Shown piece after piece: positions 2,254 to 27,733 of a stretch of DNA of 64,000 bases (within the stretch, counting starts at the first letter, position 1; every line of letters starts with the position of its first letter). The stretch is from Saprospiraceae bacterium (GTDB lineage Bacteria > Bacteroidota > Bacteroidia > Chitinophagales > Saprospiraceae): contig JAXLUT010000007.1 of the NCBI GenBank assembly GCA_046329385.1, positions 20,640-84,639 on the forward strand. The letters run 5' to 3'. The translations under genes and the position numbers were made by a program. The notes under the pieces were generated by a model. That model was not told where the DNA came from, made no database searches, and saw only the letters and a list, made by a program, of their open reading frames with translations.

Positions 2254-2270
2254 GTTGTGGTATATTTATA

Positions 2271-2366
2271 ACGAGCCAAAGATACAACAAATTTGATATT
2301 TTGGCTGAATATAAATGTCTATAATCAGCCAAAATGTATTAAAAAAGTTGGTTTTGGCTGATTATA
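2271..2366. repeat. ~95-bp repeat copy B, immediately upstream of the ATPase start
   Basis: See copy A. Lies 18 nt upstream of the ATG at 2253..2251. Confidence 0.8.
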
Positions 2367-2594
2367 ATTTATGAAATTAAATTAATTTTAATGTATAAAT
2401 ATAACAAATACACTAAAATATGTTAATTATGTGTCAATTTTATAAAATTTCTATTTTGTAATTTATTGCATTAAAATTTAAAAGTAAATCAAGAACAAAT
2501 TTTGAAAATAGTATCGACTATCATTCCAACATGGCAGACAATTTGTAATGGACAAAGATGGATCAAGTTGCCCTTAATTATTATCAGAATGCTA

Positions 2595-3554: not shown

Positions 3555-3792
3555 ATTGGTGCTATATATTTATGTGTGATGTTTTAAGAAAATATTTTAT
3601 TTTTTTCATTTACTATCATAAACCCAATCTAACAACGATATTATTAAAATGTTTTGATGGATAATAGAGAATGCAAATGTAGCTTAATTGGTACTTGTTA
3701 TTATGTTTTTTGGATAAGTGCTTGGTTATTTTCGCTCAATTCTACACAAATTCATTCAAAGTTCATCGTTCAAAACTTGTCAGGCTCTGCGT

Positions 3793-3947
3793 GATCGTTC
3801 AAATCATTCGTCGTTCTTATCGTTCGATTCATTCGGTTGTTCAAATCATTCGGTTGCTCGATTCACTCGGTTGTTCAAATCATTCGGTTGTTCGGATCGT
3901 TCGGATCGTTCAAATCATTCGGTTGTTCGGATCGTTCAAATCATTTA
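3793..3947. repeat. degenerate 8-9-nt tandem array (about 18 units ending in TTC; higher-order unit aaatcattcggttgttcggatcgttc)
   Basis: Read directly: gatcgttc/aaatcattc/ggttgttc/ggatcgttc units in series, ending 7 nt before a TAnnTTTG box. Confidence 0.85.
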
Positions 3948-8357: not shown

Positions 8358-9143
8358 CTACAATGATGTGGCCTCTTCCATGATGATATCGTATCTATAC
8401 CCGGCACCAAAATCTTTATTGAGTGCAATTTTACCTCTGAGCACTACTTTACTACCGATAGGTATGTTTTGATTGGTCGTAACTGTGAGGTCGATAGCCT
8501 TACCGTTTGATTGGCTACCATCATGAATGTGTACCCAATTGCGCCCCATGATGCCATTGTTGACTTTGACGCATTCTCCAGCAATAGTGATGATTTGGCC
8601 GTCGTATTTTGATTTTTTAGCCATCAGATCAGATAGTTTTACGGCATCTTTTACTTGTATAGGTGCAGACGAAACAGGCTTTTCTTGTGTAACTTCTGAT
8701 GGCATACTACCGCTAATATTTCCACCAGGATGCGCAGATGCGTCAATGATATTGCTGACAAGATAAATAGTATCAAATGTCCTTTTGAATTCAATACTCT
8801 CAAAATTTGTTTTCATCAGGCCACCTCTATAGAGATAAGTTTGACCTTTGACAGCATCTGTTTTTGAGGTAGCAATCCAGAATTTTTTGCCTGCTTCAGT
8901 TACGTTCAGATAGGTGTATCTGTCTGTTTGCAGGATTTCATTAGCTGTTACTTGGTGTACATCTGCTGCTCCAGCCATGCCACCTGGCTTATTTCCCATT
9001 GGGTTGGTACTATTTGGTGCTGTAACAGGTATAGCAGAGTTGTTAGTGGGTGATTCGTCAGCTACTATCACTTTTGGTTTTGATTCGCAACCAAATAAAA
9101 TATGTAAAGCAATGATGCTGAAAAGTACATTTTTTATAAACAT
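8358..9143 (-). CDS. lipoprotein of unknown function, last gene of the cytochrome operon
   Basis: Signal plus lipobox (ALHILFGC). 7-nt gap from the upstream barrel gene. No CxxCH. Confidence 0.6.
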   Translation of the reverse strand: MFIKNVLFSIIALHILFGCESKPKVIVADESPTNNSAIPVTAPNSTNPMGNKPGGMAGAADVHQVTANEILQTDRYTYLNVTEAGKKFWIATSKTDAVKGQTYLYRGGLMKTNFESIEFKRTFDTIYLVSNIIDASAHPGGNISGSMPSEVTQEKPVSSAPIQVKDAVKLSDLMAKKSKYDGQIITIAGECVKVNNGIMGRNWVHIHDGSQSNGKAIDLTVTTNQNIPIGSKVVLRGKIALNKDFGAGYRYDIIMEEATSL

Positions 9144-9150
9144 GTCAAAC

Positions 9151-10767
9151 TTAATTTTTAATTCTTTGTGTAACGGTTACAAAGTAACGATGCCAAGCTT
9201 TAGTTGGTTCAAATGTGCCTTCATAACTGCACATCAATGTCGTTTTTTTCAATACATTGATGGTGAAGTTGATGCCAGCTATTTTCTGTTTTAAAGCTGA
9301 TTCACTATTGAAGAAGTTATAGTTAATTTGTCGATAATTGATTTCGGTGCTCAATTTGCCCTTAAAAAATGAATCGTTGATTCTCCCACCTATAATATTT
9401 CCCGTAAAAGTATATGACTCCAACTGGTTGTAATTCAATGACAAATTGGTTGATTTCCTTGCTATGCTCGAAATACTTAAATTGACTATATGGTTTTTTG
9501 TTGGTTTTGGTATGCTGCCTTGGTATCGGTAGAACGATGATACATTTATATTGATCCGCCTGAATGGGCTATAATTGGCCTGTAATCTGAAACCTTGTCT
9601 TGTTTCTTGGGCCAATAATTGCTCGATAAATGTTTGGTAAGATTCGTAATAAATAATATTGCGCCTATTATCATAAGAGCCAGATACTGAGAGATTGCGC
9701 CTTAGTCTATATCTGAGCGATGCATAGACGCTTGTCAATCTTGGCTTATTGTCTGTTTCGCCATTTACTTTTTTGAAGAGATCAAACTCAGTAGAAAAGA
9801 AAATATTTAGATTTTTTACTATTGAATTATTATGCTGAAAATACAGAAACCGTCTATCTGTTTTGAAGTCATTTTGCTGCTCAACGATTGCCAAAGATGT
9901 TTGAGCTAATCCTTTGGTTGTTTTATCAGATCTTACCAAATACAATCCTACTTGAGGTAGCCCTGCATTGAATGTGAAATTGGTAAAATCTGGCCTTGTT
10001 CCTAAAATGCCACCAATGGTATATTTACCAATAATGTACTCACCTTGTAGTCCATCTATGGCGCCAATATTAGCAATGTTTTGGTTCATACGTCTTCCTA
10101 ATGAAATATTGAGTCTGTCAGATGGCGAATATGTCATAGCCAACGATAGCACCTTAAAATCATTATAGAAATTGTAATTCGTCTGATCAATACCATACCG
10201 GCGGCGATAGGTCAAATAAGTTTGAATTGAAAATGCTGATTCGTTGATGTTTTGTACATTTAGACTCACAGCAGCCCTAATTCTTTGAAAATTGTTTTGC
10301 TGGTCAGGATTGATACTGGCATTGGTTGATAAAGTGAGTCTTCCAGTTGTGATAGACTTTCTGGATTTTGTTATTGGGATGGAATCTTTGCCGAGGGTAT
10401 CCAATGTCACATTTGTTTTAATTTCTTCGATGGGAAGGGAGATAACTGGCTCCAGAGTCTTTAGAACTTTTTTTGTTACAATTTTTTTAACAGCTTGCCC
10501 AAGATTGATCGTAGTACTTGAGATATTTTGTGTCACACATGAAGTAGTGGATTTCTGTATGACTACCAATGCAGGTACCCAGTTGCTTTGTTCCAAGATA
10601 AGTAAGGTGTCGGTGACATAAATATCACTTGTATTTTCAAATCTGACATAGACATTGGTGCTACTTTTAAAGCTTACATTGCCAAGTATTTCACCTCGTT
10701 CTTGACCAAACAAAAAGCTCGGTGTCAAAATAAAAATTGCCCAAAATATCCTTAATAAATAATTCAT
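9151..10767 (-). CDS. predicted outer-membrane beta-barrel protein (candidate porin partner of the cytochromes)
   Basis: Signal peptide. Long run of alternating-polarity strands rich in Y/R/N/S after a ~110-aa N-terminal domain. 3-nt gap to the cytochrome gene. Confidence 0.6.
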   Translation of the reverse strand: MNYLLRIFWAIFILTPSFLFGQERGEILGNVSFKSSTNVYVRFENTSDIYVTDTLLILEQSNWVPALVVIQKSTTSCVTQNISSTTINLGQAVKKIVTKKVLKTLEPVISLPIEEIKTNVTLDTLGKDSIPITKSRKSITTGRLTLSTNASINPDQQNNFQRIRAAVSLNVQNINESAFSIQTYLTYRRRYGIDQTNYNFYNDFKVLSLAMTYSPSDRLNISLGRRMNQNIANIGAIDGLQGEYIIGKYTIGGILGTRPDFTNFTFNAGLPQVGLYLVRSDKTTKGLAQTSLAIVEQQNDFKTDRRFLYFQHNNSIVKNLNIFFSTEFDLFKKVNGETDNKPRLTSVYASLRYRLRRNLSVSGSYDNRRNIIYYESYQTFIEQLLAQETRQGFRLQANYSPFRRININVSSFYRYQGSIPKPTKNHIVNLSISSIARKSTNLSLNYNQLESYTFTGNIIGGRINDSFFKGKLSTEINYRQINYNFFNSESALKQKIAGINFTINVLKKTTLMCSYEGTFEPTKAWHRYFVTVTQRIKN

Positions 10768-10770
10768 AAA

Positions 10771-13700
10771 TCAATCTTCACCATCTGGATGACAAGCATA
10801 ACAAGCATTGCTATTGTATTGATATCCACCTACACCGTCATGTTTGTCAGCCATGTCAGCAGGATCGTCATGTTCGTGGCAATTTATACAACTAAATAGA
10901 TTGTAATTGCTTGCATTGAAGTGGCAGTCAGCACAAGTATTCCATTCTCCTTGGTGTTTTCCACTATATATTGGGAAATACATGCCATCATGGTTAAAAG
11001 TAGCTGGATTCCAAGCATTTTGAGAGTGACAAGAAGCACAGTCTGTCGGGAATTGTGCAGCTGTATGGTTGGGATTGGTAGTACCATTATAATCGCTTTG
11101 GTGACAACCTACACAAGTATTTGGAGTATTATTGTAATTGCCATTGTGACAAGTCACACATTCTAATGATGTATGGGCACCAACTATTGGATATATACTA
11201 TTGTGGTCTGGGAACAAAGCAGGACTCCATCCAGGTGCTGTAGTATGACAACTCACACAATCGGTAGATATACCTAGTGTGCTGTGATTTGGATTGGTTG
11301 CTCCGTTATAATCTGGTGTATGACAGCCAGCACAAGTGTTGGGTGTATTGGTATAATTGCCCATGTGACATTGGTTACAATCTGCTGCAATGCTACTATG
11401 CGCACCAGTTAATTGATAAAAATTGTTATGATTGAATGACGATGGTGTCCAACTGTTCTGACTATGACAACTTTCGCAATTGGTAGGGAATTGGTTGCTA
11501 CTGTGATTTGGATTAGTAGAGCTATTATAGTCACTCGTATGACATCCGAAGCAAGTGTTTGGAGTATTGTTGTAGTCTCCATTGTGACAAACTACACAAT
11601 TATTGGCAACACTGATATGCGCACCAGCTATCACATAAAAATCATTATGGTTTGGCATCGTAGCTGGTTGCCATCCAGGAGCAGTAGTATGGCAGCTCAT
11701 ACAGTCTGTGGATAGTCCTAAGGCTCCGTGATTCGGATTTTGGGCATTATTGTAGTGCGTCTGATGACAAGAAACACAAGTGGTAGATGTATTGGTATAG
11801 TTGCCGTTGATGTGGCAAAGTGTACAATTATTGGCTATTGCTTGATGTCCACCTGTCAATGGCCAAATAGTATTATGATCAAATGAAGATGGTGTCCAAG
11901 CGTCTTGACTATGACATGTAGTGCAGTTGGTTGGGAATTGATTGACCTCATGGTCTGGGTCATTGGTTGCGTTAAAATCTGATTGATGACAACCAATACA
12001 TGTATTTGGAGTCGTTGAGTAATTGCCATTAATGTGACATTCTGTACAGTTATTGGCGATAGCGGCATGAGCTCCAACCAAAGGATAAACAGTACTGTGG
12101 TCAAATGTTGATGGCGTCCAAGCATCTTGACTATGGCATGTAGCGCATTGATTAGGAAACTGTTGAGTAGTATGATTAGGATTGGTAGTGGCATTGTAGT
12201 CAGACTGGTGGCATCCTACACAAGTGTTGGGCGTATTGTTATAATCACCATTGTGACAAGCTGCACAATCACCAGCTATAGCAATATGTGCGCCGGCAAT
12301 GACATAAAAATCATTGTGATTGGCCATCGTGGCAGGAGACCAACCTGGATTGGTGGTGTGACAAGTGGCACAAGCTGTACTCAGCCCCAAAGTAGTGTGA
12401 TTAGGGTTGATACTTTGATTGTAATCTGTCTGGTGGCAACTGACACATTCTGATGAGGTATTATTGTAATTTCCATTATGACAAACCACACAATTGGTGG
12501 ATATAGCAGAGTGCGCGCCTGTCAAAGGCCAAAAAATACTATGATCAAAATTAGCTGGTGTCCAAGTGTTTTGATTATGGCACGTGGTACAATCAGTAGG
12601 AAACATACCTGCTTCGTGATCTGGATTGGATGTATTATTGAAATCCGATTGATGACAACCGACACATGTGTTTGGAGTATTGGTATAGTTGCATTATGAC
12701 AAGCTGCGCAATCTCCTGCTATGGCAGTGTGTGCGCCAGCTATGACATAGTAATCATTGTGATTGGGCATCATGGCTGGTGCCCATCCAGGTGTGGTAGT
12801 GTGGCATTGTACACAATTATTGGATATACCCAAGGCTATGTGATTTGGATTGACAGCTTGATTGAAGTCAACAGTATGACAATCTACACAGTTAGTAGAT
12901 GTGCCTTGATAACCATTGGCATGACATGATGTACAATCTGCACTGGTGTGTGCGCCCGTCAATGGGAAATTGGTGGTATTGTGATCAAAGATAAAATCTG
13001 CATCGCCTGTAGGATGACATGCCAAACAAGCAGGGCTATTGTAAACATAGCCGCCTACACCGTTATGTTCATTGTCAGTTTGTGGATTGGTATGACAAGT
13101 GATACAAGTAAATTGGCTGTAGTCGGCTGGATTGTTATGGCAATCTTGACATTGTGTCCATTCTCCTTGGTGCTCGCCAGAGTATATAGGGAAATATTGA
13201 TTATCATGGTTGAAAGTGGACGGTTGCCATGCATTTTCGCTATGACAAGAAGCACAGTCGGTTGGAAATTGTAAGGCTATGTGATTCGGGTCAGTGGTGG
13301 CAGTATAATCGCTATTGTGGCAACCTACGCATGTATTTGGCGTATTGTTGTAGTTACCATTATGACAGGCGGCACAATCATTTGCTATGGATGCGTGTGC
13401 GCCATTTAAGGTATAAAATTGATTGTGAATGGTGAATGAAGCTGGTGCCCAACCTGGATTGGTAGTGTGACAAGATGCACAATCCGTAGTCAAATTTAGT
13501 CCAACGTGATTGGGATTGCTTGCTTGATTAAAATCAGTGGTATGGCAACTTACGCAAGCTGAATTGGTATTGGCAAATCCATTGGAATGGCACTGCATAC
13601 AATCTACACCTTGGTGTGCTCCAGTCAATGCAAATCCTGTGGTATTATGGTCGAACACTAAATCGGCATCTCCTGTAGGATGGCAAGCCAAACATGCAGG

Positions 13701-16007
13701 GCTGAAATATGAATAACCACCTACACCATTATGTTGATCATTAGTTTCTGGGTTTTGATGACAAGTAATGCATGTAAACGCGGCCCAATTGCCTGGCGTA
13801 GAGTGGCATTCATTACAATCATTCCAAGTACCTTGATGCTTTCCGCTATATATTGGGAAATATTGCCCATCATGGTTGAATGTGGATGGCGTCCAAGCAT
13901 TTTCAGAGTGACATTGTGCACATTCTTGAGGGAATAGTAATTGTGCATGGTTAGGATTGGTAGTGGCATTATAATCATCGTTGTGGCAACCATTACAAGT
14001 ATTAGGCGTGACATTGTAATTGCCATTATGACAACTGGCACAATCATTGGCAATACTGGCGTGTGCACCATTTAGCGCATAATATGTATTATGATCCGCA
14101 AAGGTGGCAGGACTCCAGCCTGGATCAGTAGTATGACATGATTTACAATCGGTATTGATACCTAATGAAATGTGATTTGGATTGGCTGCACCATTAAATT
14201 CAGTCAAATGACAGCTGGCACAATTGGTAGAAGTACCAGCAAATCCTGTAGCATGGCAACTAATACAATCTGTAGCATTGTGGGCACCAGTCAGTGGAAA
14301 AGCAGTAGTGTTGTGATCAAAAACCACTAATGCATCACCAGTAGGATGGCAAGCCAAGCACGCATTATCTTGATAAATATAGCCGTTTACATCATCGTGT
14401 TCTTCAGAAGTCTCTGGGTCTTTGTGACACGATACACATGTAAACTTAGTAAAATCACCCGCAACTTTGTGACAATCTATACACTGGTCCCATTCGCCTC
14501 TGTGTTTACCGCTATATATTGGGAAATATTGCCCATCGTGGTTAAATGTTGATGGTTGCCAAGCATTTTCGGTATGGCAAGTGGTACAATCATGCGAAAA
14601 CTGATTTTGGACGTGATTTGGGTCATTCGCTGCATTGTAGTCGCTATTATGACATCCAATACAAGTATTGGGTGTATTGTTGTAGTCACCGTTATGACAA
14701 GCTACACAGTTATTGGCAATACTCGCATGAGCGCCATTGAGCATATAATAATCGTTGTGAACAGCAAAAGTTGCAGGACTCCAACCTGGAGCTGTAGTAT
14801 GACAAGATTTGCAATCGTTTGACAGATTAAGTTTTGTATGATTTGGATTTTGTGATCCAGCAAAATCTGATTGATGACAATCCACACAAGCTGTCGATGT
14901 ACCTTGAAAACCATTGGCATGACAAGATACACACTCTACTGTGGTGTGTGCCCCTGTCAATGGAAATTGTGTAGTATTATGGTCAAATGCCATATCTCCA
15001 TCACCTGAAGGGTGGCAAGCCAAACAAGCATTGTCATCATAATGGTAGCCGCTGACGCCATTATGTTCGTCATCTGTTTCCATTTTTTTATGACAAGCTA
15101 TACATGAAAATGTTTTGAAATCTCCTGGATTGGTATGGCATTCCACACAATCTGACCATACACCTTTGTGTTTGCCGCTGTATATTGGGAAATGTTTTGC
15201 ATCATGTTCTTGAAAAGTCACTGGTCTCCATCCTGGAGCCAAAGTATGGCATTGGGCACATTCTGTTGTAAATCCAGCAGCAGCGTGATTTGGTGAGGAT
15301 GTATTGTTGAAATGTGTTTGATGACAACTGATACATTCAGCAGAGATGATAGAAAAATCATCTGATAAATGACAAGCCTTACAATCATCTATCTTATGGC
15401 CTTGCTCCAAAGGGAAGAAGCTATGGTCGATGATTTCAGTATTCCATCCGGACCCATTCAATCCATGGCAAGCAGAACAGTCATTGCTAAAGTTGTTTTT
15501 GACGTGATCTGGTTTTTTGGTGCTGATATAGTCATTTCTATGGCAATCAATACAGTTGACGCCTGTAGGAGAAAATCTTACATTGCTTTCGCTTATATGG
15601 CAATCATTGCAATTGATATTGGCATGTACACCCATCAATGGGAATGAAACCTGCTCATGCAATAGGGTGATATTCTCAACTATCCATGATTGTGGTGTAT
15701 GACACCTTGCGCAGTCTTGCCCTACTGTGAGCTGGTGTACATCTTGATGGCAACCGACGCAAGTAGTGGAGACTTGTTTAAACTCCAATGTCTGATGACA
15801 TGATCTACAATCTAGATCTTTGTGCAGACCAACCAATGGAAAAGATGTACTGTCGTGACTGAAGTTAGATTTTTTTTGTTGGTAAGTCCAATTTTCGGGA
15901 TGATGACATTGTGCACAGTCTATGGCAAAGGATGCTCCATGGGGAGACTGAGACAAAACCCTTCCCCAAAGACATACAAAGAACATCAAACCAATATATT
16001 TGAGCAT
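10771..16007 (-). CDS. giant multiheme c-type cytochrome-like protein, ~1745 aa, ~70 CxxCH motifs, interrupted by a 1-nt frameshift near 12692
   Basis: Track ORFs 12522..16007 (44 CxxCH before the frame is lost) and 10771..12606. Adding one G at 12691/12692 restores ...CAACHNGNYTNTPNTCVGCHQSDFNNTSNPDHEAGMFPTDCTTCHNQN..., giving 26 CxxCH downstream of the break. Sec signal MLKYIGLMFFVCLWGRVLSQ. Confidence 0.8.
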
Positions 16008-16195: not shown

Positions 16196-18040
16196 TCACT
16201 GATGACAATCTTTGCAGTCCAATTTTTCATTTCTATATAGGATGGTAGATTTGCCATCTTTGACCTCAGATTGGTGGCACTGGTTGCAGTTGACTTTTTG
16301 GTGCGCTCCTTCGAGTTTGAAGCGCGTGTTGTCATGATTAAAATTGCTCCGATCCCACTTTTCAAAACCGTGACATCTAGCACAATCGGTCTGGCCATCT
16401 TGTTCAAATTGATTGCCATGTATGTTGTCGTGGCAGCTTTGACATTTTTGGTCCAATTGGATAAATTTTTGTGTTTTTGGCGTTGTGGTTTCGTCAAAAT
16501 GGCATGACCTGCAAGATATTGTCTCGTGTTTTCCCTTGAGTGAAAATGCGGTTTGGTTATGGTCAAAAGCTACATGAGTCCATGCATCATTGTTGTGACA
16601 AGCAGCGCAATCTTGGTTAGGTATAAATTTGGTTGAAATAAAACCATCATGTATATTATCATGACAATCAATACATAAAGATCCAATATTTCTAAAATTC
16701 CATTTATTATTATCAGGTTTATGGCAAGCAAAACAAGGTGTAGCAATATGAGCACCTTTGAGCGGAAAATTGGATTTTTCGTGTCGGTTGAAATCAAAAC
16801 TACTTTCCAAAAAACTAGTTTCGTCATGACAAGATTTACAATCATTTTCTACCAATTTTTCAAATTGCCCATCATGATAATCTTTATGGCATGATTTACA
16901 TTGGTCATGAGCCAAAGGAGCCGTCATATAGGTCGAAGTATGGCATTTGCGGCAATCGACTGATTGGTGCTTACCATACAATGTATAACCCGTCAAAGTA
17001 TGATCAAAATCTGATTTGATATTTTTAATGCCAAATGATTGCTGGTTATGACAAGATTTACAATCTTGGCCTAATTTTTTTTCATGGGCATCCTCATGAC
17101 AAGTAAGACAAGTTACATTTTGGGTGTTTTCAAATTCCTTGTATGTATCTTTTGTCCCAGATCTATTATCATGACATTTTTTACAATCAATAGTTTTGTG
17201 TTTGCCTTCCAACTCAAAACCTGTCAAACTATGGTTGAAGGCAGATGTGGACTTCATTTTTGAAAATGACTCGGTACTATGACAAGATTTGCAATCTGTA
17301 CCGAACTCACCATGATGAGGATCTTTGTGGCAAGAGCTGCAATTTTTATGAGGCACATTCGCAAAGTTTTGAAATTCTTTTCCATTTTTAATCTCTGTTT
17401 TATGGCATTGGATACACTGCACATTGGCGTGTGCCCCTGTCAATGGAAATTGGGTTTGGCTATGCTGAAATCCTGTAGCTGGTTTGAACTTGTCAAAATT
17501 ATGACACTTTGCACAATCATTGTCCAAGGTTTTTTGGTGATAGTCATCATGGCATGTGATACAAGTAGGAGATAAGCCAAGATAAGTACCTTTATTTTGT
17601 CTTATTTTTGGATCTGTAATATTATCGGCTGTATGGCACTTAGTACAATCATTGATCTTGTGGCTGCCTTTCAGATCATAACCTGTCAATGAGTGGTTGA
17701 AAGTCTTCTTGTCAAAGCGGATCATTTCAAAATTGACGCCATGGTGCTCGCTATGGCAAGTAATGCAGGCCTTGCCTTTGATCTCTCTGGATGAATGGTA
17801 ACCTTTGTTTTGACTTATTTTTTGTTTGAGTGGCTTGTGGCAATCCAAGCATTTTTGCTCTGATATCTTAGAGCCTAGATCATGACATGCCGTACAATTG
17901 CTGATACCTTCGAGTTGGGTATGCGCCTTGGTCAATTTGCCCGGTGACAATTGACTGAAGCCAACACAAATACATAGCGACCAGCATGTAATGATGGAGA
18001 CCAATTGCTTAATGGATAAACTATGTATAAATGATGCCAA
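16196..18040 (-). CDS. multiheme c-type cytochrome-like protein, 23 CxxCH motifs
   Basis: 614 aa with an N-terminal hydrophobic signal. 23 CxxCH by manual count, about one per 27 aa. Confidence 0.85.
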   Translation of the reverse strand: MASFIHSLSIKQLVSIITCWSLCICVGFSQLSPGKLTKAHTQLEGISNCTACHDLGSKISEQKCLDCHKPLKQKISQNKGYHSSREIKGKACITCHSEHHGVNFEMIRFDKKTFNHSLTGYDLKGSHKINDCTKCHTADNITDPKIRQNKGTYLGLSPTCITCHDDYHQKTLDNDCAKCHNFDKFKPATGFQHSQTQFPLTGAHANVQCIQCHKTEIKNGKEFQNFANVPHKNCSSCHKDPHHGEFGTDCKSCHSTESFSKMKSTSAFNHSLTGFELEGKHKTIDCKKCHDNRSGTKDTYKEFENTQNVTCLTCHEDAHEKKLGQDCKSCHNQQSFGIKNIKSDFDHTLTGYTLYGKHQSVDCRKCHTSTYMTAPLAHDQCKSCHKDYHDGQFEKLVENDCKSCHDETSFLESSFDFNRHEKSNFPLKGAHIATPCFACHKPDNNKWNFRNIGSLCIDCHDNIHDGFISTKFIPNQDCAACHNNDAWTHVAFDHNQTAFSLKGKHETISCRSCHFDETTTPKTQKFIQLDQKCQSCHDNIHGNQFEQDGQTDCARCHGFEKWDRSNFNHDNTRFKLEGAHQKVNCNQCHQSEVKDGKSTILYRNEKLDCKDCHQ

Positions 18041-18045
18041 ATTTC

Positions 18046-19368
18046 TTACTTTTTATGAGATAACATGGTGTAATTGAATCGTTTAGATATTTCAATGCCA
18101 GCTTTTTGTAGAAATTGTGTTGGTAACTCTCCACCAGCAAAAATAAAGACCAAATCATTTTTAAGATGCATCTCAGTGCCATCTTTCAATGCAATAGTGA
18201 CATCATCTTGATTGATCTCTTTGACATTGGATTCAAAAAGCATATTAATTTTATTTTCATTAATGGCTTTTTCTATATTTTGAGCATTAAGCGGTTTTAA
18301 CCTATTGAATGCTTCGCTGCGATATGATAGTGCTACTTTGTTGTCTTTGGCCAATAGCAATGCACTTTCGATGGCTGAATCTCCGCCACCTACCACAAGG
18401 ACATTTTGACCAATAATATGTTCTGGCTCCATGAGTTTGTAAGCTACTTTTTCCAAATGCTCGCCTTTTACATCCAGTTTTCTTGGTGTGCCTCTGCGAC
18501 CTATTGCCAAAAGTACTTTTTCGCCTTGGTAGCTTTCACCTTTTTGTGTAGTCACCACGAATTGACCATCTTGCTTGCTGATAAGTTCTACTTTTGAGTT
18601 TTCGACAATATTGATTTTATTCTTATCTAATACTTCGTGCCAAAGGTCGAGCAATTCGGTTTTACTGGTTTGATATAGCTTCACTTTGCCATGTCCAGGC
18701 AGGTCCATAGGCGATGTCATGACGATCTTGGCTCTAGGAAAATTATATACAGTACCTCCAAGAGTATCTTGCTCCAATGTCAATGTTTTGATGCCCATGT
18801 TTTTGGCTTGGAGAGATGCTGCAATACCAGCAGGACCAGCACCGATGATGATGAGATCATAAGTGGCTTTATGATTTTTGTCCAAAGACTGTGAGATATA
18901 TTGGACTGCTTGTTTGCCTTGTTCTACACTATTTTTAATGAGGCCCATTCCACCCAATTCGCCAGCTATAAAAATGCCTTTGACATTGGTCTCAAAATTT
19001 TGGTTGACATGAGGCAGATCGACGCCACGTTTTTCAGTACCAATCTTTAGAGAAATTGCTTCTACTGGGCAAGCGTGAAAACAAGCACCATGACCTACAC
19101 ATCGGGATGCATTGATGAGCGTGGCTCTTCCATTTCTGATACCTATGATTTCTTTTTCTGGACAAGCTATGACGCATGCTCCACTTTTGATGCAATTATC
19201 TTCGTCAATGTATGGATACAAAGATACGGGTTCGAAGGCTCCAACTTCTTTGGCTACTTGGATTTTTTCGTCCACATCTTTGGATTCTTTTTTGAGTTTA
19301 CGCACATAGATCCACACGATAATGAGACAAATCAAGCTGACAACGCTATATATAATGAGCTCTTCCAT
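18046..19368 (-). CDS. membrane-anchored FeS (2 ferredoxin-like motifs) + FAD/NAD(P)-binding oxidoreductase (thioredoxin-reductase-like fold)
   Basis: N-terminal TM helix followed by RKLKKESK. Motifs CIKSGACVIACP and CVGHGACFHACP. Dinucleotide motifs IIGAGPAG and VVGGGDSA. Confidence 0.85.
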   Translation of the reverse strand: MEELIIYSVVSLICLIIVWIYVRKLKKESKDVDEKIQVAKEVGAFEPVSLYPYIDEDNCIKSGACVIACPEKEIIGIRNGRATLINASRCVGHGACFHACPVEAISLKIGTEKRGVDLPHVNQNFETNVKGIFIAGELGGMGLIKNSVEQGKQAVQYISQSLDKNHKATYDLIIIGAGPAGIAASLQAKNMGIKTLTLEQDTLGGTVYNFPRAKIVMTSPMDLPGHGKVKLYQTSKTELLDLWHEVLDKNKINIVENSKVELISKQDGQFVVTTQKGESYQGEKVLLAIGRRGTPRKLDVKGEHLEKVAYKLMEPEHIIGQNVLVVGGGDSAIESALLLAKDNKVALSYRSEAFNRLKPLNAQNIEKAINENKINMLFESNVKEINQDDVTIALKDGTEMHLKNDLVFIFAGGELPTQFLQKAGIEISKRFNYTMLSHKK

Positions 19369-19374
19369 CAGTGC

Positions 19375-20229
19375 TTAAAATATCCAAGTATAACCAAAAG
19401 TCAATGTCACTGCTACGTGAATGATCATGATGATGAGCATGATCAGAGCAAAAGGCAAGTGAGCAATGTGCCAATACCTAAATAATTTTTGCATAGTGAG
19501 CAGTCTTTGTATTTTCCGATTGAGATTCAGCTCATTGGAGATATTGAGCATGATAGATTTCATCTCTGATGATGGAATATTTTGTGTATTCAATCTACTT
19601 CGAATGATTCGCAATTGTTTCTTTTCATCAAGATATTGTGAAATGTATCCACTAAAACCCTTATAGTCTTGAGTGGATTTTGTAGATTCGATCAATCCAT
19701 GTATATCCACATTGGAGTATTGTTGTTGATCGACACTTGCATCTTTTGCTGACATTGCTTGCAATTCAACTAAGCTGAGTTCTCGGCCTTGGATGGTGCG
19801 TGGTATTTGAAGATAAATGAATCGACCTATCACGCCACTCGCCACTACTGCGACCATACTCCAAAAACTGATGGAAACGATGCCACCGAATTTGAAAGCT
19901 GTATGAAATAAGATCATGATGGGGCCCAAAGTACACAGAAAAATGTGAAATTCGAGCCAGTATTTCAACACACCAATCCTACTAAGCGAACGGAATCTTT
20001 TTCTTGCCATATAACCAAACACGCCTATCAAGATAAGCAAAGTGCCGATGATGCCTAATCCATGGCCATACATACCACTAGGTTTTAGGTTTTGATGGTC
20101 TTGATGATAAAAACGCTCCTCAAGTGAAGTAACATAATAATCTGAACCATGTAGTGCTAAATAAATAGTAACACCAACTACTATGGAAGCCAAGGTGGCA
20201 AGATAGATCTTATGGCCTGTCTCGGTCAT
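19375..20229 (-). CDS. polytopic membrane protein with two H-x13-H pairs (candidate di-heme b transmembrane electron carrier)
   Basis: Likely start MTETGHKIY at 20229, preceded by a TAnnTTTG box. About five TM helices. EFHIFLCTLGPIMILFH and HLPFALIMLIIMIIH lie within hydrophobic segments. Confidence 0.6.
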   Translation of the reverse strand: MTETGHKIYLATLASIVVGVTIYLALHGSDYYVTSLEERFYHQDHQNLKPSGMYGHGLGIIGTLLILIGVFGYMARKRFRSLSRIGVLKYWLEFHIFLCTLGPIMILFHTAFKFGGIVSISFWSMVAVVASGVIGRFIYLQIPRTIQGRELSLVELQAMSAKDASVDQQQYSNVDIHGLIESTKSTQDYKGFSGYISQYLDEKKQLRIIRSRLNTQNIPSSEMKSIMLNISNELNLNRKIQRLLTMQKLFRYWHIAHLPFALIMLIIMIIHVAVTLTFGYTWIF

Positions 20230-21151: not shown

Positions 21152-21868
21152 ATGGAATTGAATAATGTCGAAATATTATTAGTTGATGACGAAGCAATAC
21201 ATACTGAGATACTCAAGAAAAAACTACAAAATTTAGGATACATAAATGTAAGCGTTGTCAATTCATTTTTAAAGGCTGTCGATTACCTCAATGAAGTTAA
21301 CCCAGATTTAATCATCTTGGATTATTATTTGGACAAGAACCATACAGGAGTGGATTTAGTCAAAGAGTCTTTATTGAATAAAGAAATACCAATTATATTT
21401 ATTAGTTCTTTCTATGGTAACGACTTGTTTAAAGAAGTCATTGGATGTGCCCCCATTGATTTTGTACCTAAAAACGTTTCCGAGTTTGATTTAGATAAGA
21501 CCATTAGATTATCTTTGATCAAAAGGAAGGAAGCAAATATAAATAAGAAATTGAAGGATTTTATTTTTGTAAAATATAAGAGGGAGATAAGGAAATTAGC
21601 TGTTATCGATATTGAATATATGGTTGTAGATGGTAAATATTTGGTTTTGCATGCAGATCAAAAAAAATATCTGATTAGATCTACCCTCAATGACTTTTTA
21701 AAAAAATTACCTGAAAACTTTATTAAAGTACATCAAGCTTATATTATCAATCTTAGGTTTTTAGAATCAATCCAGTTGGATGAAGGCATTTTGAAAATCG
21801 GGACTGTTGATATCCCATTTAGTAGGAATTATAAAAAGGACTTGCTCAATGCATACTATATGCCATGA
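21152..21868 (+). CDS. LytTR-family response regulator
   Basis: REC domain (ILLVDDE, IILDYYL) plus C-terminal LytTR DNA-binding domain (FIKVHQAYIINL). TGA stop. Confidence 0.9.
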   Translation: MELNNVEILLVDDEAIHTEILKKKLQNLGYINVSVVNSFLKAVDYLNEVNPDLIILDYYLDKNHTGVDLVKESLLNKEIPIIFISSFYGNDLFKEVIGCAPIDFVPKNVSEFDLDKTIRLSLIKRKEANINKKLKDFIFVKYKREIRKLAVIDIEYMVVDGKYLVLHADQKKYLIRSTLNDFLKKLPENFIKVHQAYIINLRFLESIQLDEGILKIGTVDIPFSRNYKKDLLNAYYMP

Positions 21869-22387: not shown

Positions 22388-25300
22388 CTAATTTTGTTTT
22401 GATTTGAGGTCATTCACAACATTTTGTAAGCTTAAAATTATTTTATCAATAGCTTTTATAGATGTATCCGAAAATGGAATGGACGCATCAAGTTCTACTA
22501 AAAGATGACATCATCATAAATATTGTAATTCCCATCTGAAGGCAATAATTTTAGCTTTTAATTTATGGGCAATTTTTTTGACTGTATCTACATCATTATT
22601 TTTTTTGGCGCGCTCCAATTCTGGAATATTTTCGTCACAAAGAGCTATGAAAAGCTCAATGATTTTATTGACAAAGACTTCGTCTCCTCTACTTATTTTT
22701 TTAATTTGACTCAGATCGTATAGCTTATGCATACTGTTCATATCATCTATGTTGTTCCTATTCGTATAATTACTAATATTGATCTGAATTTTTCTGAAAA
22801 ATTCTTGCTCGTCATAGGTTTGATGATGTGAAGTCATTCATACCTATGCTTTAGGTATAATTTTATGTCATGCTTGAATGCATTGGCAGTTAAGGCAATG
22901 ATAGGTATGTCCAACTTGAGTTGTTCTCTGATATATATTTCGTTGCCTCAACACCATCCATTGTAGGCATTTGAATATCCATCAAGATGATGTCAAAATT
23001 ATTTTTTTGAACTTCTTCGACTGCGATTTTTCCATTTTCTGCCTCTCTTGTTTCAAACCCAAGATAGTTCAAACTCTGTATAGCAATAAATCTATTCATT
23101 TCATTGTCTTCGACCAACAAAGCTCTCATCCCTTGAAAACATTTGCTTTAATTTCTGCACTTTTGGGATGTAATTGTGTAGCTTTTGATTTTGTAAACAT
23201 AAGCTCAAAAATGCAAGTTGTCCCTTCATTTTTCTTGCTTTTTATTAACATTTTGCCACCCATCAGTTTGATCAAATCATGAGAAATGGCCATACCTAAT
23301 CCGGTACCTTCAAATTTCTTTTATTGATGTGTTTTTTTGTTTCTTGAGAAAATCTTATCGTACCTGTGATAAATTCCTTTGACATACCGATACCAGTATC
23401 TGAAACTTCAAATCTCAAGGTTTACTAAATTTACCTTGCATCAAGGTAGCCGATAACTCGATATGGCCAAATTGAGTAACTTCATAGAATTTCCAATAAG
23501 ACGATATTTACTTGACGCAAATGTATATCATCACCTATTAATACGAATGGATGTTTGCATCAATATGGATATTAAATTCAAGATTTTTTCGATAGCTGAG
23601 AAGATGATGGAGTAAATATTATTGAGTAGAGTACTTGGACTAAAATTATTTTTCAAAATCTCCATATCTCCAGATTCAATTTTTGCAATATCTAAGACAT
23701 TATTGAGGATGGTCAAAAGATGCCTTGCCGAGCTTTCTGACTGTTTGACATAAAACTGTTGGGGCTCAGTTAGTGCTTCTTTATTGAGCTGCCTTATCAT
23801 GCCTATGATGACATTCAATGGTGTCCTTATCTCATGGCTCATATTGGCCAAAAACAATTCTTTCGCTTTTGCTACTGCTTCGGCAAAGCTCTTAGCTTCA
23901 GCCAGTTCTATTTCTAATCTTTTTTGTGCTGTGATGTCCAAGTGAATGCCAATGCTGCCTATCAATTGGCCTTTGTCGTTATAGTTGGGTGCGCCACTTA
24001 CAAACCACCATCTTTTTTCTCCAGTCTTATTAATTACTTCCAATTCATAACTATCTGACATACCATCGATTCTTATTTGTGTTTTGTCATAGACAATTTT
24101 TTTGTGATGGTCTTGGACAAAAAGTTCAGCTGCTTTGCTATCTTTTAATTCAAAAAGACTGAAGCCTGACATCTCACAAAAACTTTGGTTGGCAAAAATA
24201 ATCACATCATTCAAATCTACTTCTAAAAGGCCCAAATTCATATTAGCAATAATATTTCTGTATTTTTCTTCTTGTCTAATGAGTTGATTCTCCCATTTTT
24301 GTCTATTTCGGATGTTAATCAACATCTGTCCAAATAACATTAAAAGACTTTTTTCTTTATTAGTATATATTTTGTGGTCTTTTACTGAATCGAAACCAAC
24401 GAAGCCAACAAGTTCTTTACCATCTATCATCGGGATAGCTATCAAACTTTTGATACCTTGTGCTTCCAATGCTTCTTGTACTCCATCTTCTTTCTCTACT
24501 TCACTTAATTTCGAAACATCTTCAATATGAAAAGATTCTCCTAATAGGTGTTGCTTTACCCAATATTCTGGTATTGGAACATTTTGCAAATTGTCGATTT
24601 CAGCTGATATTCCATCACCACACCACTCATAGGTATTTGAAGTTGTGTTGGCTTCAAAATCATAATCAAAAATATAAGCTCTGTCTGCACCAACAAACAT
24701 ACCCATTTTCTCAAGTGATTCGGCTATGGTCTTTTCTAATTCTTGGATGTCAAGATTGATATATGTGGTAGCTACATCGATCAATGCAGCTTGAAGCTTG
24801 ATCTCATTGTCAAGTTTCTCTTGTGCAAAATATTGTCGAGTTCGATCCACCAAAACACCATCAATCCTTATAGGTTTATTATCTTCATTATAAATATATT
24901 TTCCTTTATTTTTTAACCATTTTAGTCGCCCTGATGCAGTATTAATCTTAAAGCGAACATTGAATTCTCCCTTTTGATCCAATTTTTGAAATATTTCTCT
25001 TACTACATTCTTATCTGACTCAATAATGGGCGCAATCCAAGCTAGTTTATCTTGCAATACTTGCTCTACACTTAGTTCATAGACTGTGTTGACTGATGGT
25101 GTTATAAAAATAAATTGTTTTTCGGGCAACTTTATAGAATAAACCACGTCTGTCATCTCATTGAGGATACTTTCAAGCATTTGAGTAGTAGAGATCAATT
25201 TTTTTTCTTGAGCTTTTCTTTCACTTATATCTTTGATAAATGCACAAAAAAACTGTTTGTCTTTTTGAAAAAAATTCATCATGTAGATTTCTACTGGAAA

Positions 25301-26323
25301 TTCATGACCATCTGCATGTAATCCTGTAATTTCAACACGCTGCCCGATGATTTTTCCCACACCACTGCTAAGAAATCTTTGCATCCCAGCATTATGTTTC
25401 TCTCTATATTTCAATGGGATGATCATATCTGAAACTTTTCGTCCCAATACATCTTTTTCTCTCCAACCAAAAATTTTTTCAGATGCTGGATTCCAAGAAA
25501 CAAAGCAACCATTTTCATCAGCAATGATGATTGCATCCATAGCATTATCTTGGATCAATCTGTAAAGTTCATCTTTGTCTCTTATCATGATATCCAGATT
25601 GATTTGAGCTGTGATATCTCTATATTGCCATAAGTGCCCTTTGTATTGATTTTCTATAAAAATTGGGATGTAATCCCTTTCAAATATTTTCCCATCTATT
25701 GTAGTTAATCTTTCATTAAAAATAGGTTTTCTGTTTTTTAGTAGCAAATTTATAGCATCAACAAACAGATCTGGCTCAGAAAATAGACCTTTACTTTGTT
25801 CAGCGGCCTTGGAGCAATCTAATCCTACCATTTCATCAGCTGAAAATGGTATATTAAACAAATTACAAAATAGCTGATTGGTAAATAGAATGTGGCGATG
25901 TTCATTTTCGATCAGAACTGCAGATTGCAAATTGGCCAAAAGTGTTTTAAATAGATTATTGGTTTGTATTAAATTTTGTTCATTTGATAGATTTAATTGT
26001 ATTTGTTGGTTGATAATATCTGATAGTTTTAAAATATCTTTTTCACCATCTACAATTTGATTTTTTTCTGTATCTAATTGCTGTAATATACTGCGTAACT
26101 TTTCTATCGTGTTTTGTCGTATATCAGACTCTGCTTTAAGCTCATTATTGATGCTTTGAAATTCCATTTCGCTCATTTCAAAAGCATGATTTAATAATTC
26201 TTTATCTTTCTCAAATGAAAAATAAGCAGTGTCAATACTCTTTAAAAAATCAAAAAGTTGAGCATTATTTTGAAATTCTTTAGGTATGTATTTTTGTATT
26301 TGTCTTTTTAATAAATTGTGCAT
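22388..26323 (-). pseudogene. hybrid sensor histidine kinase (PAS/GAF-HisKA-HATPase-REC-Hpt) with heavily eroded 3' third
   Basis: ORF 23531..26323 is intact through HisKA (MSHEIRTPLN). HATPase (DTGIGM, GTGLGMAISHDLIKLMGG), REC (ORF 22890..23129) and Hpt (ORF 22514..22837, AHKLK) are recoverable only by repeated frame switching. In-frame TGA TGA lies at 22508..22513 inside the Hpt. Confidence 0.75.
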
Positions 26324-26375
26324 TGTGTGCACTGCCTCCCTATAAACTGGACTTTTTTCAAATGGCGTAAATTTG

Positions 26376-27449
26376 CTAAGGCAAATTTACAATATCTTTG
26401 TTTTGGAAACAAACAAAATCCTGAGACTTTTCCAGGTTGACTTCAGGGGAAGGGATTGATGCCACATTATCAGATAACTGCTTTTGTTGCTCATCCTTTT
26501 CTTTGAAGAAAAATATAAATTTGTTTTTGTGTTGCTTTTGATCAATCACACCAGATTCCCATAACTTTATAAACTCTTTTGGAGCATGGTCTAATAGGCA
26601 TGTTAGATACCTCATGTTATTGTACGTCGTGAAGAATCGCTCAAAGACATCATTGGCATGTTCTAAATCTCGGAGCTCATACTTATCGCATACCAGCTTT
26701 TGAACTGTGCTATGAAATGATTCTATATGCCCGTTTAACTGTGGTGTCGCTGGTGGTATGTACACATTCTTAAAGCCAAATCGCTTCATTAAAGCTCTAT
26801 ACACTTTGGATATAAATTGGCTGCCATTATCTGTTCGGAAGCTTATTTCGAGATGCTTTGGATCAATTTGCTTGGTTATTAATTCTTGATCAACAAATTT
26901 CAATATTAATTCAATCAGCTTTTTGGAAGTCATACTTAAATTAAGCGTCCAAACGTAAGCTTCTCTATGAAAGATGTCGTACATTGTGATCAAGTATGCG
27001 TTTCTCTGGAGTCCGTCGATATATACATATTTGATATCTATCTCTATGATTTGCAATGGTTTAGTGGCTCTTGGCTTGGATTTTACGATATCTTTATCAA
27101 ACTGATTGTTTTTTGTTCTATACGGTTGCGTCAAATTATTTTCTGACATTAACCGATATACTTTCTTCTTTCCTAATGCGTACCCTTGGCGCTGTAGATA
27201 GGTCGTAACCTTACGATATCCGTAGTCTAAGAACTCTTCGCCCAGTAGACCTTTGATAGTTTCCACTACTTGCCCATCAGGTACTTCTACACCCCTATGT
27301 AAGCTATGATGGGTTTTGGTTTTACCACCAACTTTGTAATTGCGCTTGTAATAATAGCTTGATTTGCTCATCTTGGCTAATCCAAGGCATTCTTCTAATT
27401 TTATACCTTGCGCAACATAATCCCTAACTATTTGCCTTTTCTCTTCCAT
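26376..27449 (-). CDS. IS3 transposase OrfB (DDE/rve integrase core)
   Basis: 357 aa; rve-type motifs (DIKYVYI, FRTDNGSQF, NGHIESFH). Confidence 0.85.
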   Translation of the reverse strand: MEEKRQIVRDYVAQGIKLEECLGLAKMSKSSYYYKRNYKVGGKTKTHHSLHRGVEVPDGQVVETIKGLLGEEFLDYGYRKVTTYLQRQGYALGKKKVYRLMSENNLTQPYRTKNNQFDKDIVKSKPRATKPLQIIEIDIKYVYIDGLQRNAYLITMYDIFHREAYVWTLNLSMTSKKLIELILKFVDQELITKQIDPKHLEISFRTDNGSQFISKVYRALMKRFGFKNVYIPPATPQLNGHIESFHSTVQKLVCDKYELRDLEHANDVFERFFTTYNNMRYLTCLLDHAPKEFIKLWESGVIDQKQHKNKFIFFFKEKDEQQKQLSDNVASIPSPEVNLEKSQDFVCFQNKDIVNLP

Positions 27450-27733
27450 TCCTCCATCTTTTTTTTAAGCAACTCTCCTTGCATTAAAATTTTCAGATCC
27501 TTTTCTACCAAAAGATCTTTTAGGCGAGCGTTTTCCTTAAGTAGTCGCTTCTTTTCAGCATCGTTGTCCTTTGAATAACTACTAAGTCCCTTAATACCCA
27601 TGGCTTGATACTTCCTATCCCAATCATAATAGGTTGTAGCGGATATCCCAAATTTACGACACCCTTCAATGACCCCTAATTTTGTGATCTCCTTGATCAT
27701 CTTTTCTTTTTCTTCTGCCGACTTGCGTTTCAT
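27428..27733 (-). CDS. IS3 transposase OrfA (HTH)
   Basis: 101 aa with an HTH (GCRKFGISATTYYDW) and leucine-zipper-like tail. Overlaps orfB in the -1 frame. Confidence 0.85.
   Translation of the reverse strand: MKRKSAEEKEKMIKEITKLGVIEGCRKFGISATTYYDWDRKYQAMGIKGLSSYSKDNDAEKKRLLKENARLKDLLVEKDLKILMQGELLKKKMEEWKRKGK
27459..27466 (-). promoter_or_regulatory. programmed -1 ribosomal frameshift slippery run (A8 on coding strand)
   Basis: Coding strand reads TTA AAA AAA AAG near the orfA end, where orfB is open in the -1 frame. Typical IS3 A-run motif. Confidence 0.6.

Follow-up and report, generated by a model that had tools for sequence, protein, structure and literature searches.

The window analysed here, a 64,000-nucleotide (nt) stretch of contig JAXLUT010000007.1 from a Saprospiraceae bacterium (assembly GCA_046329385.1), carries on its minus strand an operon for multiheme cytochromes. 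The subject of this report is the second gene of that operon, which encodes a membrane-anchored flavoprotein with two iron-sulfur (FeS) motifs. The gene starts 6 nt past the stop codon of a gene for a five-transmembrane (5-TM) inner-membrane protein (IMP) and ends 5 nt before the gene for a 23-heme cytochrome, and gaps of this size suggest co-translation. An earlier note, made from the letters of the window, had placed the flavoprotein first-but-one in a multiheme operon, and this is where it lies, between the IMP and the 23-heme cytochrome. Reading 18046-19368 on the plus strand gives a translation full of stops and was discarded. The genes of the operon, listed from first to last, are as follows.

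19375..20229, minus strand: the upstream partner, a 284-amino-acid (aa) 5-TM inner-membrane protein ('IMP' of the type known from the porin-cytochrome cluster PCC3), predicted to be a di-heme b cytochrome
18046..19368, minus strand: the membrane-anchored flavoprotein with two FeS motifs and FAD and NAD(P)H sites, 440 aa, ATG start, stop codon included
16196..18040, minus strand: periplasmic multiheme cytochrome c, 614 aa, 23 CxxCH motifs, signal/anchor sequence, completing the conserved triad as its third member
10771..16007, minus strand: giant multiheme cytochrome, presumed extracellular, as open reading frames (ORFs) with 44 and 25 CxxCH motifs, joined about 1746 aa and 70 hemes
9151..10767, minus strand: 538-aa signal-peptide protein, candidate outer-membrane porin (Porin_4 match weak, E = 1.7)
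8358..9143, minus strand: 261-aa predicted lipoprotein, last gene of the operon, with a GW-domain match and the same position in the loci L009 and L011

The flavoprotein ORF is conserved as a gene and has not arisen by chance. An identical copy exists in public data, and the close homologues (at least 68% identity, n = 119), which come mostly from Saprospiraceae metagenome-assembled genomes, all carry both FeS motifs, under labels such as 'NAD(P)-binding domain-containing protein', '4Fe-4S ferredoxin' and 'thioredoxin reductase'. Beside these 119 sequences, the family was sampled as 150 representatives of 50%-identity clusters and as 80 genome loci from many phyla. The protein begins with MEELIIYSVVSLICLIIVWIYVRKLKKESK and consists of the following parts.

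19303..19359, minus strand: N-terminal transmembrane (TM) anchor, aa 4-22, N-out/C-in, from hydropathy and the RKLKKESK that follows it
19159..19194, minus strand: FeS motif 1, C59-x2-S62-x2-C65-x3-C69-P (CIKSGACVIACP), position 2 variable in the family
19066..19101, minus strand: FeS motif 2, C90-x2-H93-x2-C96-x3-C100-P (CVGHGACFHACP), its His a hallmark of the family
18871..19020, minus strand: FAD-binding 'GD-motif' strand and helix, aa 117-166, FETNVKGIFIAGELGGMGLIKNSVEQGKQA, C-terminal in thioredoxin reductase (TrxR) and YpdA and relocated here by circular permutation of that fold
18073..18870, minus strand: two-Rossmann core for FAD (GAGPAG) and NAD(P)H (GGGDSA, Y349-R350...R356), Cys-free

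Both of the three-Cys ferredoxin-like motifs read from the letters in the earlier note are present, at aa 59-70 and aa 90-101, within a Fer4 dicluster domain (aa 52-106) that Pfam recognises by several models (Fer4_10, 39.2 bits, cutoff 25.5; Fer4_21, 38.9, cutoff 35; Fer4_7, 32.1, cutoff 27). The remainder is a flavodomain matched by Pyr_redox_3 over aa 173-429 (E = 1.7e-50, 172.5 bits, cutoff 30) and by Pyr_redox_2 (110.4 bits, cutoff 26.1). With both Rossmann motifs in place, GAGPAG at aa 176-181 and GGGDSA at aa 327-332, and the Pfam scores above the gathering thresholds, the protein has the fold of two dinucleotide-binding domains. Its seven Cys are C14, which lies in the TM helix, and residues 59, 65, 69, 90, 96 and 100; inspection of aa 101-440 revealed no Cys beyond motif 2 and hence no CxxC pair in the flavodomain. 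The Pyr_redox hits, the YpdA and TrxR relatives described below and the Cys-free flavodomain together bear out the proposal of a TrxR-like FAD/NAD(P) fold that lacks a redox-active Cys pair.

The N-terminal TM helix is found in 40 of the 43 unfused family members. When Lys and Arg were counted within 15 residues of the helix, the mean was 0.05 on the N-terminal side and 4.2 on the C-terminal side, the latter being greater in 40/40, and none has a twin-arginine motif. Because of this positive-inside bias and the missing export motif, the FeS- and FAD-bearing part can be placed in the cytoplasm, as had been argued from the window by the positive-inside rule. The opposite candidate, a periplasmic FeS protein exported by the Tat pathway, was rejected on the same two grounds.

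The FeS motifs depart from those of a canonical eight-Cys 2x[4Fe-4S] ferredoxin, as there are only six Cys and position 2 is occupied by Ser62 in the first motif and His93 in the second. At position 2 of motif 2, His was found in 119/119 close homologues, in 114 of the 125 representatives that have two motifs and in all 77 genome loci scored, and the family consensus of this motif is C-[IV]-G-H-G-x-C-x3-C-P. Position 2 of motif 1 is Ser in every one of the 119 close homologues; it is variable among the 125 representatives (C59, S56, T5, A3, I1, V1) and among the genome loci (C42, S23, T10, A2). Conservation of the two substitutions had been set beforehand as a check, and the outcome was divided: the His is conserved family-wide, and the Ser is clade-specific, with Cys in about half of the family. 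Judged from these alignments, the motif 2 His defines the family, and the motif 1 Ser marks the Bacteroidota/Ignavibacteriota branch, at a site where many relatives carry the canonical Cys.

In the standard wiring of 2x[4Fe-4S] ferredoxins, the motif 1 position serves cluster I and the motif 2 position cluster II. Since about half of the family has Cys at the motif 1 position, cluster I is probably an ordinary [4Fe-4S] cluster in those relatives, and the special site of the family would be the second one, not the first. In the flavoprotein of the window, cluster I would be Ser-ligated or a [3Fe-4S] cluster; fumarate reductase FrdB, which has Val at position 2 of motif 1, holds a 3Fe cluster there. 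For cluster II, the motif predicts either a His(Cys)3 [4Fe-4S] cluster or a [3Fe-4S] cluster with the His nearby. A search of the PDB with the ferredoxin domain gave MvhB, FwdF, Fsr and HdrA as top hits, and in each of the five best-aligned domains a Cys stands where the flavoprotein has the His. Fsr contains 'KGHGMCFEVCP', which loosely resembles CxxHxxCxxxCP with a different Cys spacing.

The flavodomain is circularly permuted, a feature absent from the earlier note and added here. The first sign was a weak HMMER alignment of aa 120-161 (ETNVKGIFIAGELGG...) to residues 275-317 of YpdA, which form its C-terminus. Without the segment, the core (aa 167-432) matched positions 1-263 of the 316 in the YpdA profile (170.4 bits) and 1-250 of the 300 in the TrxR profile (91.6 bits). 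When aa 117-166 were artificially placed behind the core, the match extended in one stretch over YpdA positions 1-314/316 (196.9 bits) and over TrxR positions 1-298/300 (110.2 bits). The native sequence covers only positions 1-266 of the YpdA profile, and aa 117-166 supply about 264-314 only once moved to the C-terminus. Because the re-permuted sequence matches YpdA and TrxR nearly end to end, the final FAD strand and helix must have been relocated ahead of GxGxxG, directly behind the ferredoxin domain. This segment is among the most conserved stretches of the family: in 43 family sequences of 34-59% identity, G136, E137 and G140 are invariant and L138, L143, I144, N146 and Q150 are conserved to at least 90%.

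Similarity to known enzymes was compared by family score, by fold and by catalytic residues. The best NCBIfam model was TIGR04018 (YpdA), with 182.2 bits for the native and 196.9 for the re-permuted sequence, both under the curated cutoff of 339.9, and the TrxR model TIGR01292 scored 98.3 bits against a cutoff of 343. The nearest relative in the PDB was YpdA/Bdr 7a7b (E = 2.8e-31 by sequence, 5e-23 by fold with Foldseek), with 7a76 also close; Foldseek gave E = 6e-21 for TrxR, and other structural relatives were low-Mr thioredoxin reductases and TrxR-like ferredoxin-NADP reductases (FNRs), with 3ab1, 5ygq and 6gar among the hits. In the alignment to 7a7b, the position of YpdA Cys14 is Ala180, within GAGPAG. 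According to the YpdA structure paper, Cys14 in G-G-G-P-C-G is conserved in Firmicute YpdA and is needed for activity in S. aureus.

The likeness to YpdA/Bdr is thus one of fold, the differences being the score under the TIGR04018 cutoff, the non-linear order of the C-terminal FAD segment and the missing Cys14. Low-Mr thioredoxin reductases have a redox-active CxxC in the NADPH domain, whereas the flavoprotein has none. The two-domain FAD/NADPH fold is common to the TrxR-like FNRs (3ab1 of Chlorobaculum tepidum, YumC of B. subtilis, 5ygq of R. palustris), which have no such Cys, and to YpdA/Bdr (7a7b), whose Cys is non-catalytic. Those enzymes are soluble, keep the usual linear domain order and rely on a separate ferredoxin. 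In the flavoprotein, which is anchored in the membrane, the ferredoxin domain is part of the same chain, and the C-terminal FAD strand and helix lie on the N-terminal side. TrxR-like FNRs pass electrons between NADPH/FAD and the FeS clusters of ferredoxin and are reversible enzymes. By the defining features of each family, the flavoprotein is neither a YpdA nor a TrxR nor an NADPH oxidase; it would work like a TrxR-type FNR fused to its own ferredoxin and docked on a heme conduit like that of NADPH oxidase. A preference for NADPH is suggested by the alignment of Y349-R350...R356 with HRRxxxR of TrxR.

As a cytoplasmic flavoprotein alone cannot reach periplasmic c-type hemes, a membrane partner is needed, and the first gene of the operon supplies a candidate that is likewise new relative to the earlier note. 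The IMP, whose true start is the ATG at 20229, carries W91-x3-H95-x13-H109 on TM3, S131-G-x-x-G135 on TM4 and W253-x3-H257-x13-H271 on TM5. Across 35 diverged IMP domains, H95, H109, H257 and H271 are the sole invariant His, and W91, W253, G59, G132, G135 and R136 are invariant as well. The H-x13-H pairs of TM3 and TM5 place one His of each near each membrane face, and from this arrangement the IMP is predicted to be a di-heme b membrane cytochrome. Diverged members give consistent sub-threshold matches to DUF4405, Ni_hydr_CYTB and Ferric_reduct, which we take to be one two-heme cytochrome b clan; for Ferric_reduct, four of the eight diverged IMPs tested gave E = 0.002-0.39 and a fifth E = 5. 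Homologues of the IMP number in the thousands, all labelled 'hypothetical'.

The IMP and the flavoprotein are also linked by gene fusion. A hidden Markov model of the IMP family detected a fused domain in about 40 of the 150 representative flavoproteins, mostly at the C-terminus (forms of about 740-760 aa) and at the N-terminus in P0253, P0259, P0299 and P0304; in addition, seven genome loci, including those of Anaeromyxobacter, Planctomycetota and Brocadiaceae, contain IMP-flavoprotein ORFs that are fused from stop to stop. The predicted topologies of both orders are internally consistent. The IMP has its N-terminus inside and its C-terminus outside, and in the C-terminal fusions it comes after the cytoplasmic flavodomain; the N-terminal fusions keep the flavoprotein's own anchor (5+1 TM helices), which returns the chain to the inside. 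Single-chain fusions of flavoprotein and cytochrome exist too, with a TM helix separating the flavoprotein from the cytochrome in P0311, P0315, P0348 and P0382. Other fusions in the family involve different domains. In the representatives P0244, P0245, P0247, P0250-P0252 and P0262 (1100-1400 aa), the unit of TM helix, FeS domain and flavoprotein is joined to long TPR-repeat regions, and in P0346 (981 aa) it is preceded by FHA domains and heme motifs.

The gene neighbourhood was counted in the 52 genome loci that have at least 3 kb on both flanks. An IMP was fused to the flavoprotein or encoded within 5 kb in 46 of them (88%), and within 700 bp in 32 of those; a cytochrome with at least 10 CxxCH motifs was likewise near the flavoprotein in 46/52, and IMP and such a cytochrome occurred together in 42/52. 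The carriers span more than ten phyla in all and include Bacteroidota, Ignavibacteriota, Zixibacteria, KSB1, Alpha-, Beta- and Gammaproteobacteria and Nitrospirota, together with Gemmatimonadota, Acidobacteriota, Planctomycetota, Myxococcota and Calditrichota. Thermobacterium salinum TK19130, Undibacterium sp. Ji22W and Ideonella sp. YS5 are culturable carriers. In a relative at 77% identity, the conserved core consists of the IMP, the flavoprotein and a 614-aa multiheme cytochrome. The order in the FCB group is IMP, flavoprotein, 20-23-heme cytochrome, larger cytochrome, signal-peptide protein of about 520-540 aa and lipoprotein of about 255 aa, and in the proteobacterial loci L031, L042 and L044 the flavoprotein gene is divergent from an IMP-cytochrome operon. 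The view that the flavoprotein is the cytoplasmic entry or exit point for electrons of a multiheme system, first drawn from one operon, is thus supported by the gene context of 82 loci.

The cytochromes next to the module are themselves related. Those with 20-24 hemes follow a common plan of heme spacing, with intervals of 15-16, 26-31 and 40-41 residues and then repeating triplets, and are 31-47% identical over the full length (E = 1e-68 to 1e-157); the 23-heme cytochrome of the window is 31-33% identical to the 21- and 24-heme cytochromes of proteobacterial loci. The cytochromes neighbouring the flavoprotein also give weak matches to the HmcA model. Residues 572-614 of the 23-heme cytochrome (16196-16324, minus strand) match positions 28-70 of the NCBIfam models ExtO/ExtN, subunits of a selenite/tellurite-reduction operon, with E of about 1e-11 and far under the cutoff, and this is probably a mere common heme-motif module.

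The cluster in the window was compared with PCC3, a putative porin-cytochrome cluster of four components (He et al. 2017, Front Microbiol 8:1584, PMC5566968): a porin, an extracellular multiheme cytochrome with a median of 34 hemes, a periplasmic one with a median of 21 hemes and an IMP of about 300 aa. The published IMP is a 5-TM protein with SGxxG on TM4 and the W-x3-H-x13-H motif on both TM3 and TM5, a di-heme b signature common to PCC3 and PCC4 (PMC5566968), and the 284-aa IMP of the window carries exactly this signature. The 23-heme periplasmic and the roughly 70-heme cytochromes correspond to the published combination of a periplasmic cytochrome of about 21 hemes with a many-heme one, and the carrier taxa overlap (Bradyrhizobium, Methylococcaceae, tubeworm endosymbionts and Leptothrix-related Betaproteobacteria). 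By these sequence features the window cluster appears to match the published PCC3 type, a match that the earlier note did not make. The difference is that the four published components do not include the flavoprotein, which here lies inside the operon. In later PCC3 papers (Gallionellaceae, Sideroxydans) the cluster still has four parts, its function is described as untested and no flavoprotein appears, and we found no open-access paper that links an FeS-flavoprotein with PCC3.

He et al. likened the IMP to the domain of NADPH oxidases and ferric reductases (NOX/FRE) and hypothesised electron exchange with the quinone pool (PMC5566968). The likeness to NOX/FRE can now be extended to the layout as a whole, in which electrons go from cytoplasmic NAD(P)H to FAD, across two transmembrane-stacked bis-His b hemes and on to an acceptor at the outer face, the two bis-His sites being the invariant H95-x13-H109 and H257-x13-H271 of the IMP. 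The parts differ. NOX/FRE have an FNR-like dehydrogenase (FAD_binding_8/NAD_binding_6) fused to a 6-TM heme domain and no FeS, whereas the module described here has a permuted dehydrogenase of TrxR/YpdA type, an interposed relay of two FeS clusters and a multiheme cytochrome c as acceptor, and its heme protein is 5-TM and usually a separate polypeptide. The IMP of the window has no match to Ferric_reduct (PF01794). A second comparison is with TmcABCD and HmcABCDEF of sulfate reducers, whose jointly encoded subunits (a multiheme cytochrome c in the periplasm, a cytochrome b in the membrane and an FeS protein in the cytoplasm) carry electrons across the inner membrane. In these, however, the cytoplasmic subunits belong to the HdrD-like CCG proteins, which lack a flavodomain for NAD(P)H, and the membrane subunits are of other families; no homology of the Tmc/Hmc membrane subunits to the IMP was detected.

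Taken together, we think it probable that the flavoprotein oxidises NAD(P)H as the cytoplasmic subunit of a three-part module that exports electrons through the inner membrane and bypasses the quinone pool. The best reading of the module is a counterpart of NADPH oxidase/ferric reductase that is split into separate proteins, contains FeS clusters and charges an extracellular wire of PCC3 type. The anchor helix would tether the catalytic part to the cytoplasmic side of the membrane, where the permuted YpdA/TrxR-like domain would take hydride from NAD(P)H to FAD, and FAD would pass single electrons to the fused two-cluster ferredoxin domain. From the FeS clusters, electrons would enter the cytoplasmic-side heme b of the IMP (H95/H257), leave from the periplasmic-side heme b (H109/H271) to the 23-heme periplasmic cytochrome and continue through the roughly 70-heme cytochrome and the probable porin to an external acceptor.

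Outward flow from NAD(P)H (-320 mV) is redox-downhill and is aided by the inside-negative membrane potential. Replacement of a Cys ligand, giving a 3Fe-4S or a His-ligated 4Fe-4S cluster, usually raises the potential above that of all-Cys ferredoxin clusters; a raised potential would make the step from FAD to FeS favourable and would offer a rationale for the conserved His. Because export dissipates the membrane potential, its role would likely be to regenerate NAD(P)+ or to dispose of electrons and not to conserve energy at the inner-membrane step. More tentatively, and as a serious possibility for PCC3 in general, we propose that this cluster is wired to cytoplasmic NAD(P)H, not to quinone, via an unrecognised oxidoreductase of two subunits, which some lineages have fused, and that it serves primarily in NAD(P)+-regenerating export and not in uptake for iron oxidation. 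On that proposal the 5-TM di-heme b cytochrome would be a new family and the second subunit of the oxidoreductase.

Several points weigh against export from NAD(P)H. The support for the function of the family is computational throughout. The IMP has no Pfam match above threshold, a profile search of PDB sequences gave nothing significant, and neither did Foldseek with the IMP model against the PDB (best E = 2.7, cytochrome b561 E = 4.9); its heme binding is deduced from motifs and sub-threshold clan matches. The AlphaFold2 (AF2) model of the ferredoxin domain is poor, and because its confidence score pLDDT is below 50 for aa 43-121, it was not used for the ligation of His93 and Ser62 or for the distance from FAD to the clusters. 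The choice between NADPH and NADH turns on just two Arg aligned with HRRxxxR of TrxR. About 6 of the 52 loci have no IMP nearby, so the flavoprotein may have other partners, and the TPR and FHA fusions misfit simple electron export and may hint at other partners or regulatory roles. The dissipation of the membrane potential by cytoplasmic electron export also makes the benefit for the cell hard to see. Finally, PCC3 has been proposed in iron oxidisers as a quinone-linked route of electron uptake (PMC5566968).

One alternative, which we judge rather unlikely, is a quinone-coupled IMP: it could be a quinone-reactive cytochrome b that feeds the cytochromes from quinol, with the flavoprotein an accessory module, either of NAD(P)H:quinone type or for regulation or repair. 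He et al. hypothesised the quinone coupling from a likeness to the b cytochromes of the bc1 complex and of NiFe-hydrogenase, and they describe PCC3 without the flavoprotein (PMC5566968). It is in line with the weak matches of diverged IMPs to Ni_hydr_CYTB, a quinone-reactive family, and with the loci that have a flavoprotein and no IMP. Nevertheless, the repeated independent fusions of IMP and flavoprotein in both orders, together with the 88% co-localisation, argue for direct transfer between the two proteins, and FAD, two FeS clusters and two b hemes would already bridge NAD(P)H to the periplasm with no need of quinone. No quinone-site motif has been identified in the IMP, although none was tested for.

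It is unlikely, in our estimate, that the same complex runs in reverse, with electrons from extracellular donors (Fe(II), minerals, cathodes) passing through the cytochromes, the di-heme b protein and the FeS-flavoprotein to NAD(P)+, which in lithotrophs would be a direct route to reducing power. TrxR-like FNRs are generally known to be reversible, and the family occurs in chemolithoautotrophs (Endoriftia, Thiodiazotropha, Sedimenticola, Nitrosomonadales, Nitrospirota). PCC3 was first described from Fe(II) oxidisers, with a proposed role as a conduit for electron uptake (PMC5566968), and the PCC3 IMP gene is upregulated in the iron-oxidising Sideroxydans CL21. Against this, an inward-moving electron would oppose the inside-negative potential, and NAD(P)+ at -320 mV lies under the typical potentials of multiheme cytochromes and of Fe(II)/Fe(III), so that reverse flow would be uphill on both counts, with no coupling ion site evident. 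The substitutions of Cys ligands, which usually raise the cluster potential, would disfavour NAD(P)+ reduction, and the host and most of its closest carriers belong to Saprospiraceae and the FCB group, by general knowledge heterotrophs.

The database label itself, according to which the protein is a thioredoxin reductase or a YpdA-type (bacillithiol) disulfide reductase with an incidental ferredoxin domain and no relation to the cytochromes, can draw on source annotations as 'thioredoxin reductase (NADPH)', on TIGR04018 as the best NCBIfam model and on Bdr/YpdA as the best PDB hit, but we rejected it as very improbable, because a flavodomain without CxxC or any other Cys, with Ala at the position of YpdA Cys14, excludes disulfide chemistry, the scores are far under both curated cutoffs (182 and 98 bits), the fold is circularly permuted, and the protein has a membrane anchor, FeS motifs and a link to IMP and cytochromes that holds across phyla.

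The other genes of the operon and its surroundings add the following. The giant cytochrome is split into a 44-heme ORF (12522-16007) and a 25-heme ORF (10771-12606) on the minus strand, which overlap by 85 nt with a frameshift near 12693-12713. Once a single-base frameshift is allowed, the repeat pattern is continuous across the junction (…DCAACHN followed directly by NYTNTPNTCVGCHQ…), and the hydrophobic 'C-terminus' of the 44-heme ORF is an out-of-frame translation. The frameshift could be an assembly indel, a mark of a pseudogene or a programmed shift. Homologues of the 538-aa candidate porin stand at the corresponding place of the operon in 8 FCB-group loci and lie farther off in 5 others. 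Just downstream of the operon, on the opposite strand, 7235-8278 encodes a 347-aa protein with peptidyl-prolyl isomerase domains of cyclophilin and FKBP type, and such isomerases have been counted among the parts of other cytochrome conduits, e.g. UetB.

On the upstream side, a LytTR-type response regulator (21152-21868, plus strand) is divergent from the operon and about 900 bp away, with an AT-rich region between, and the relative L001 has a LytTR regulator (3223-3945) a few kb from its IMP/flavoprotein/cytochrome module; the regulator may control the cytochrome operon. Farther on, the region 22514-26332 (minus strand) encodes a 933-aa PAS/PAS/GAF/PAS/HisKA sensor kinase that has no HATPase_c match and only 45 aa past HisKA, followed by a receiver-domain-like fragment of 79 aa (22890-23129) and a 107-aa ORF (22514-22837) that has no Pfam match and was read as HPt-like. 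Together these look like a hybrid kinase interrupted by frameshifts and suggest that there are indel errors or decaying genes in the window. An insertion sequence element lies directly upstream of the kinase (rve integrase 26376-27449, plus 27428-27733). In the Saprospiraceae relative L001, genes for ApbE (flavin transferase), DUF4266 and DUF3570 (777-3166) are found about 6 kb upstream of the module and are reminiscent of clusters for electron transfer associated with extracytosolic flavinylation; no counterpart was seen adjoining the operon of the window.

To our knowledge, the way in which electrons get through the inner membrane is understood less well than any other step of extracellular electron transfer in organisms other than Shewanella and Geobacter, and all well-studied Gram-negative routes that we know of (CymA, ImcH, CbcL, CbcBA) begin at quinol. 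If the export reading is true, a quinone-independent path from NAD(P)H through FAD, FeS and heme b to a multiheme cytochrome would be a new type of entry point. The second FeS site, with its conserved CxxHxxCxxxCP, would be a clean target for spectroscopy of non-Cys-ligated or 3Fe clusters, and the circular permutation a tidy case of fold rearrangement alongside domain fusion. Thousands of proteins now labelled 'thioredoxin reductase' or 'NAD(P)-binding protein', as well as the IMP of PCC3, would gain a testable function, and the reading of PCC3 genes in metagenomes as markers of iron oxidation would change. For the Saprospiraceae themselves, in which giant cytochromes have been noted in activated sludge, such a module could account for those cytochromes.

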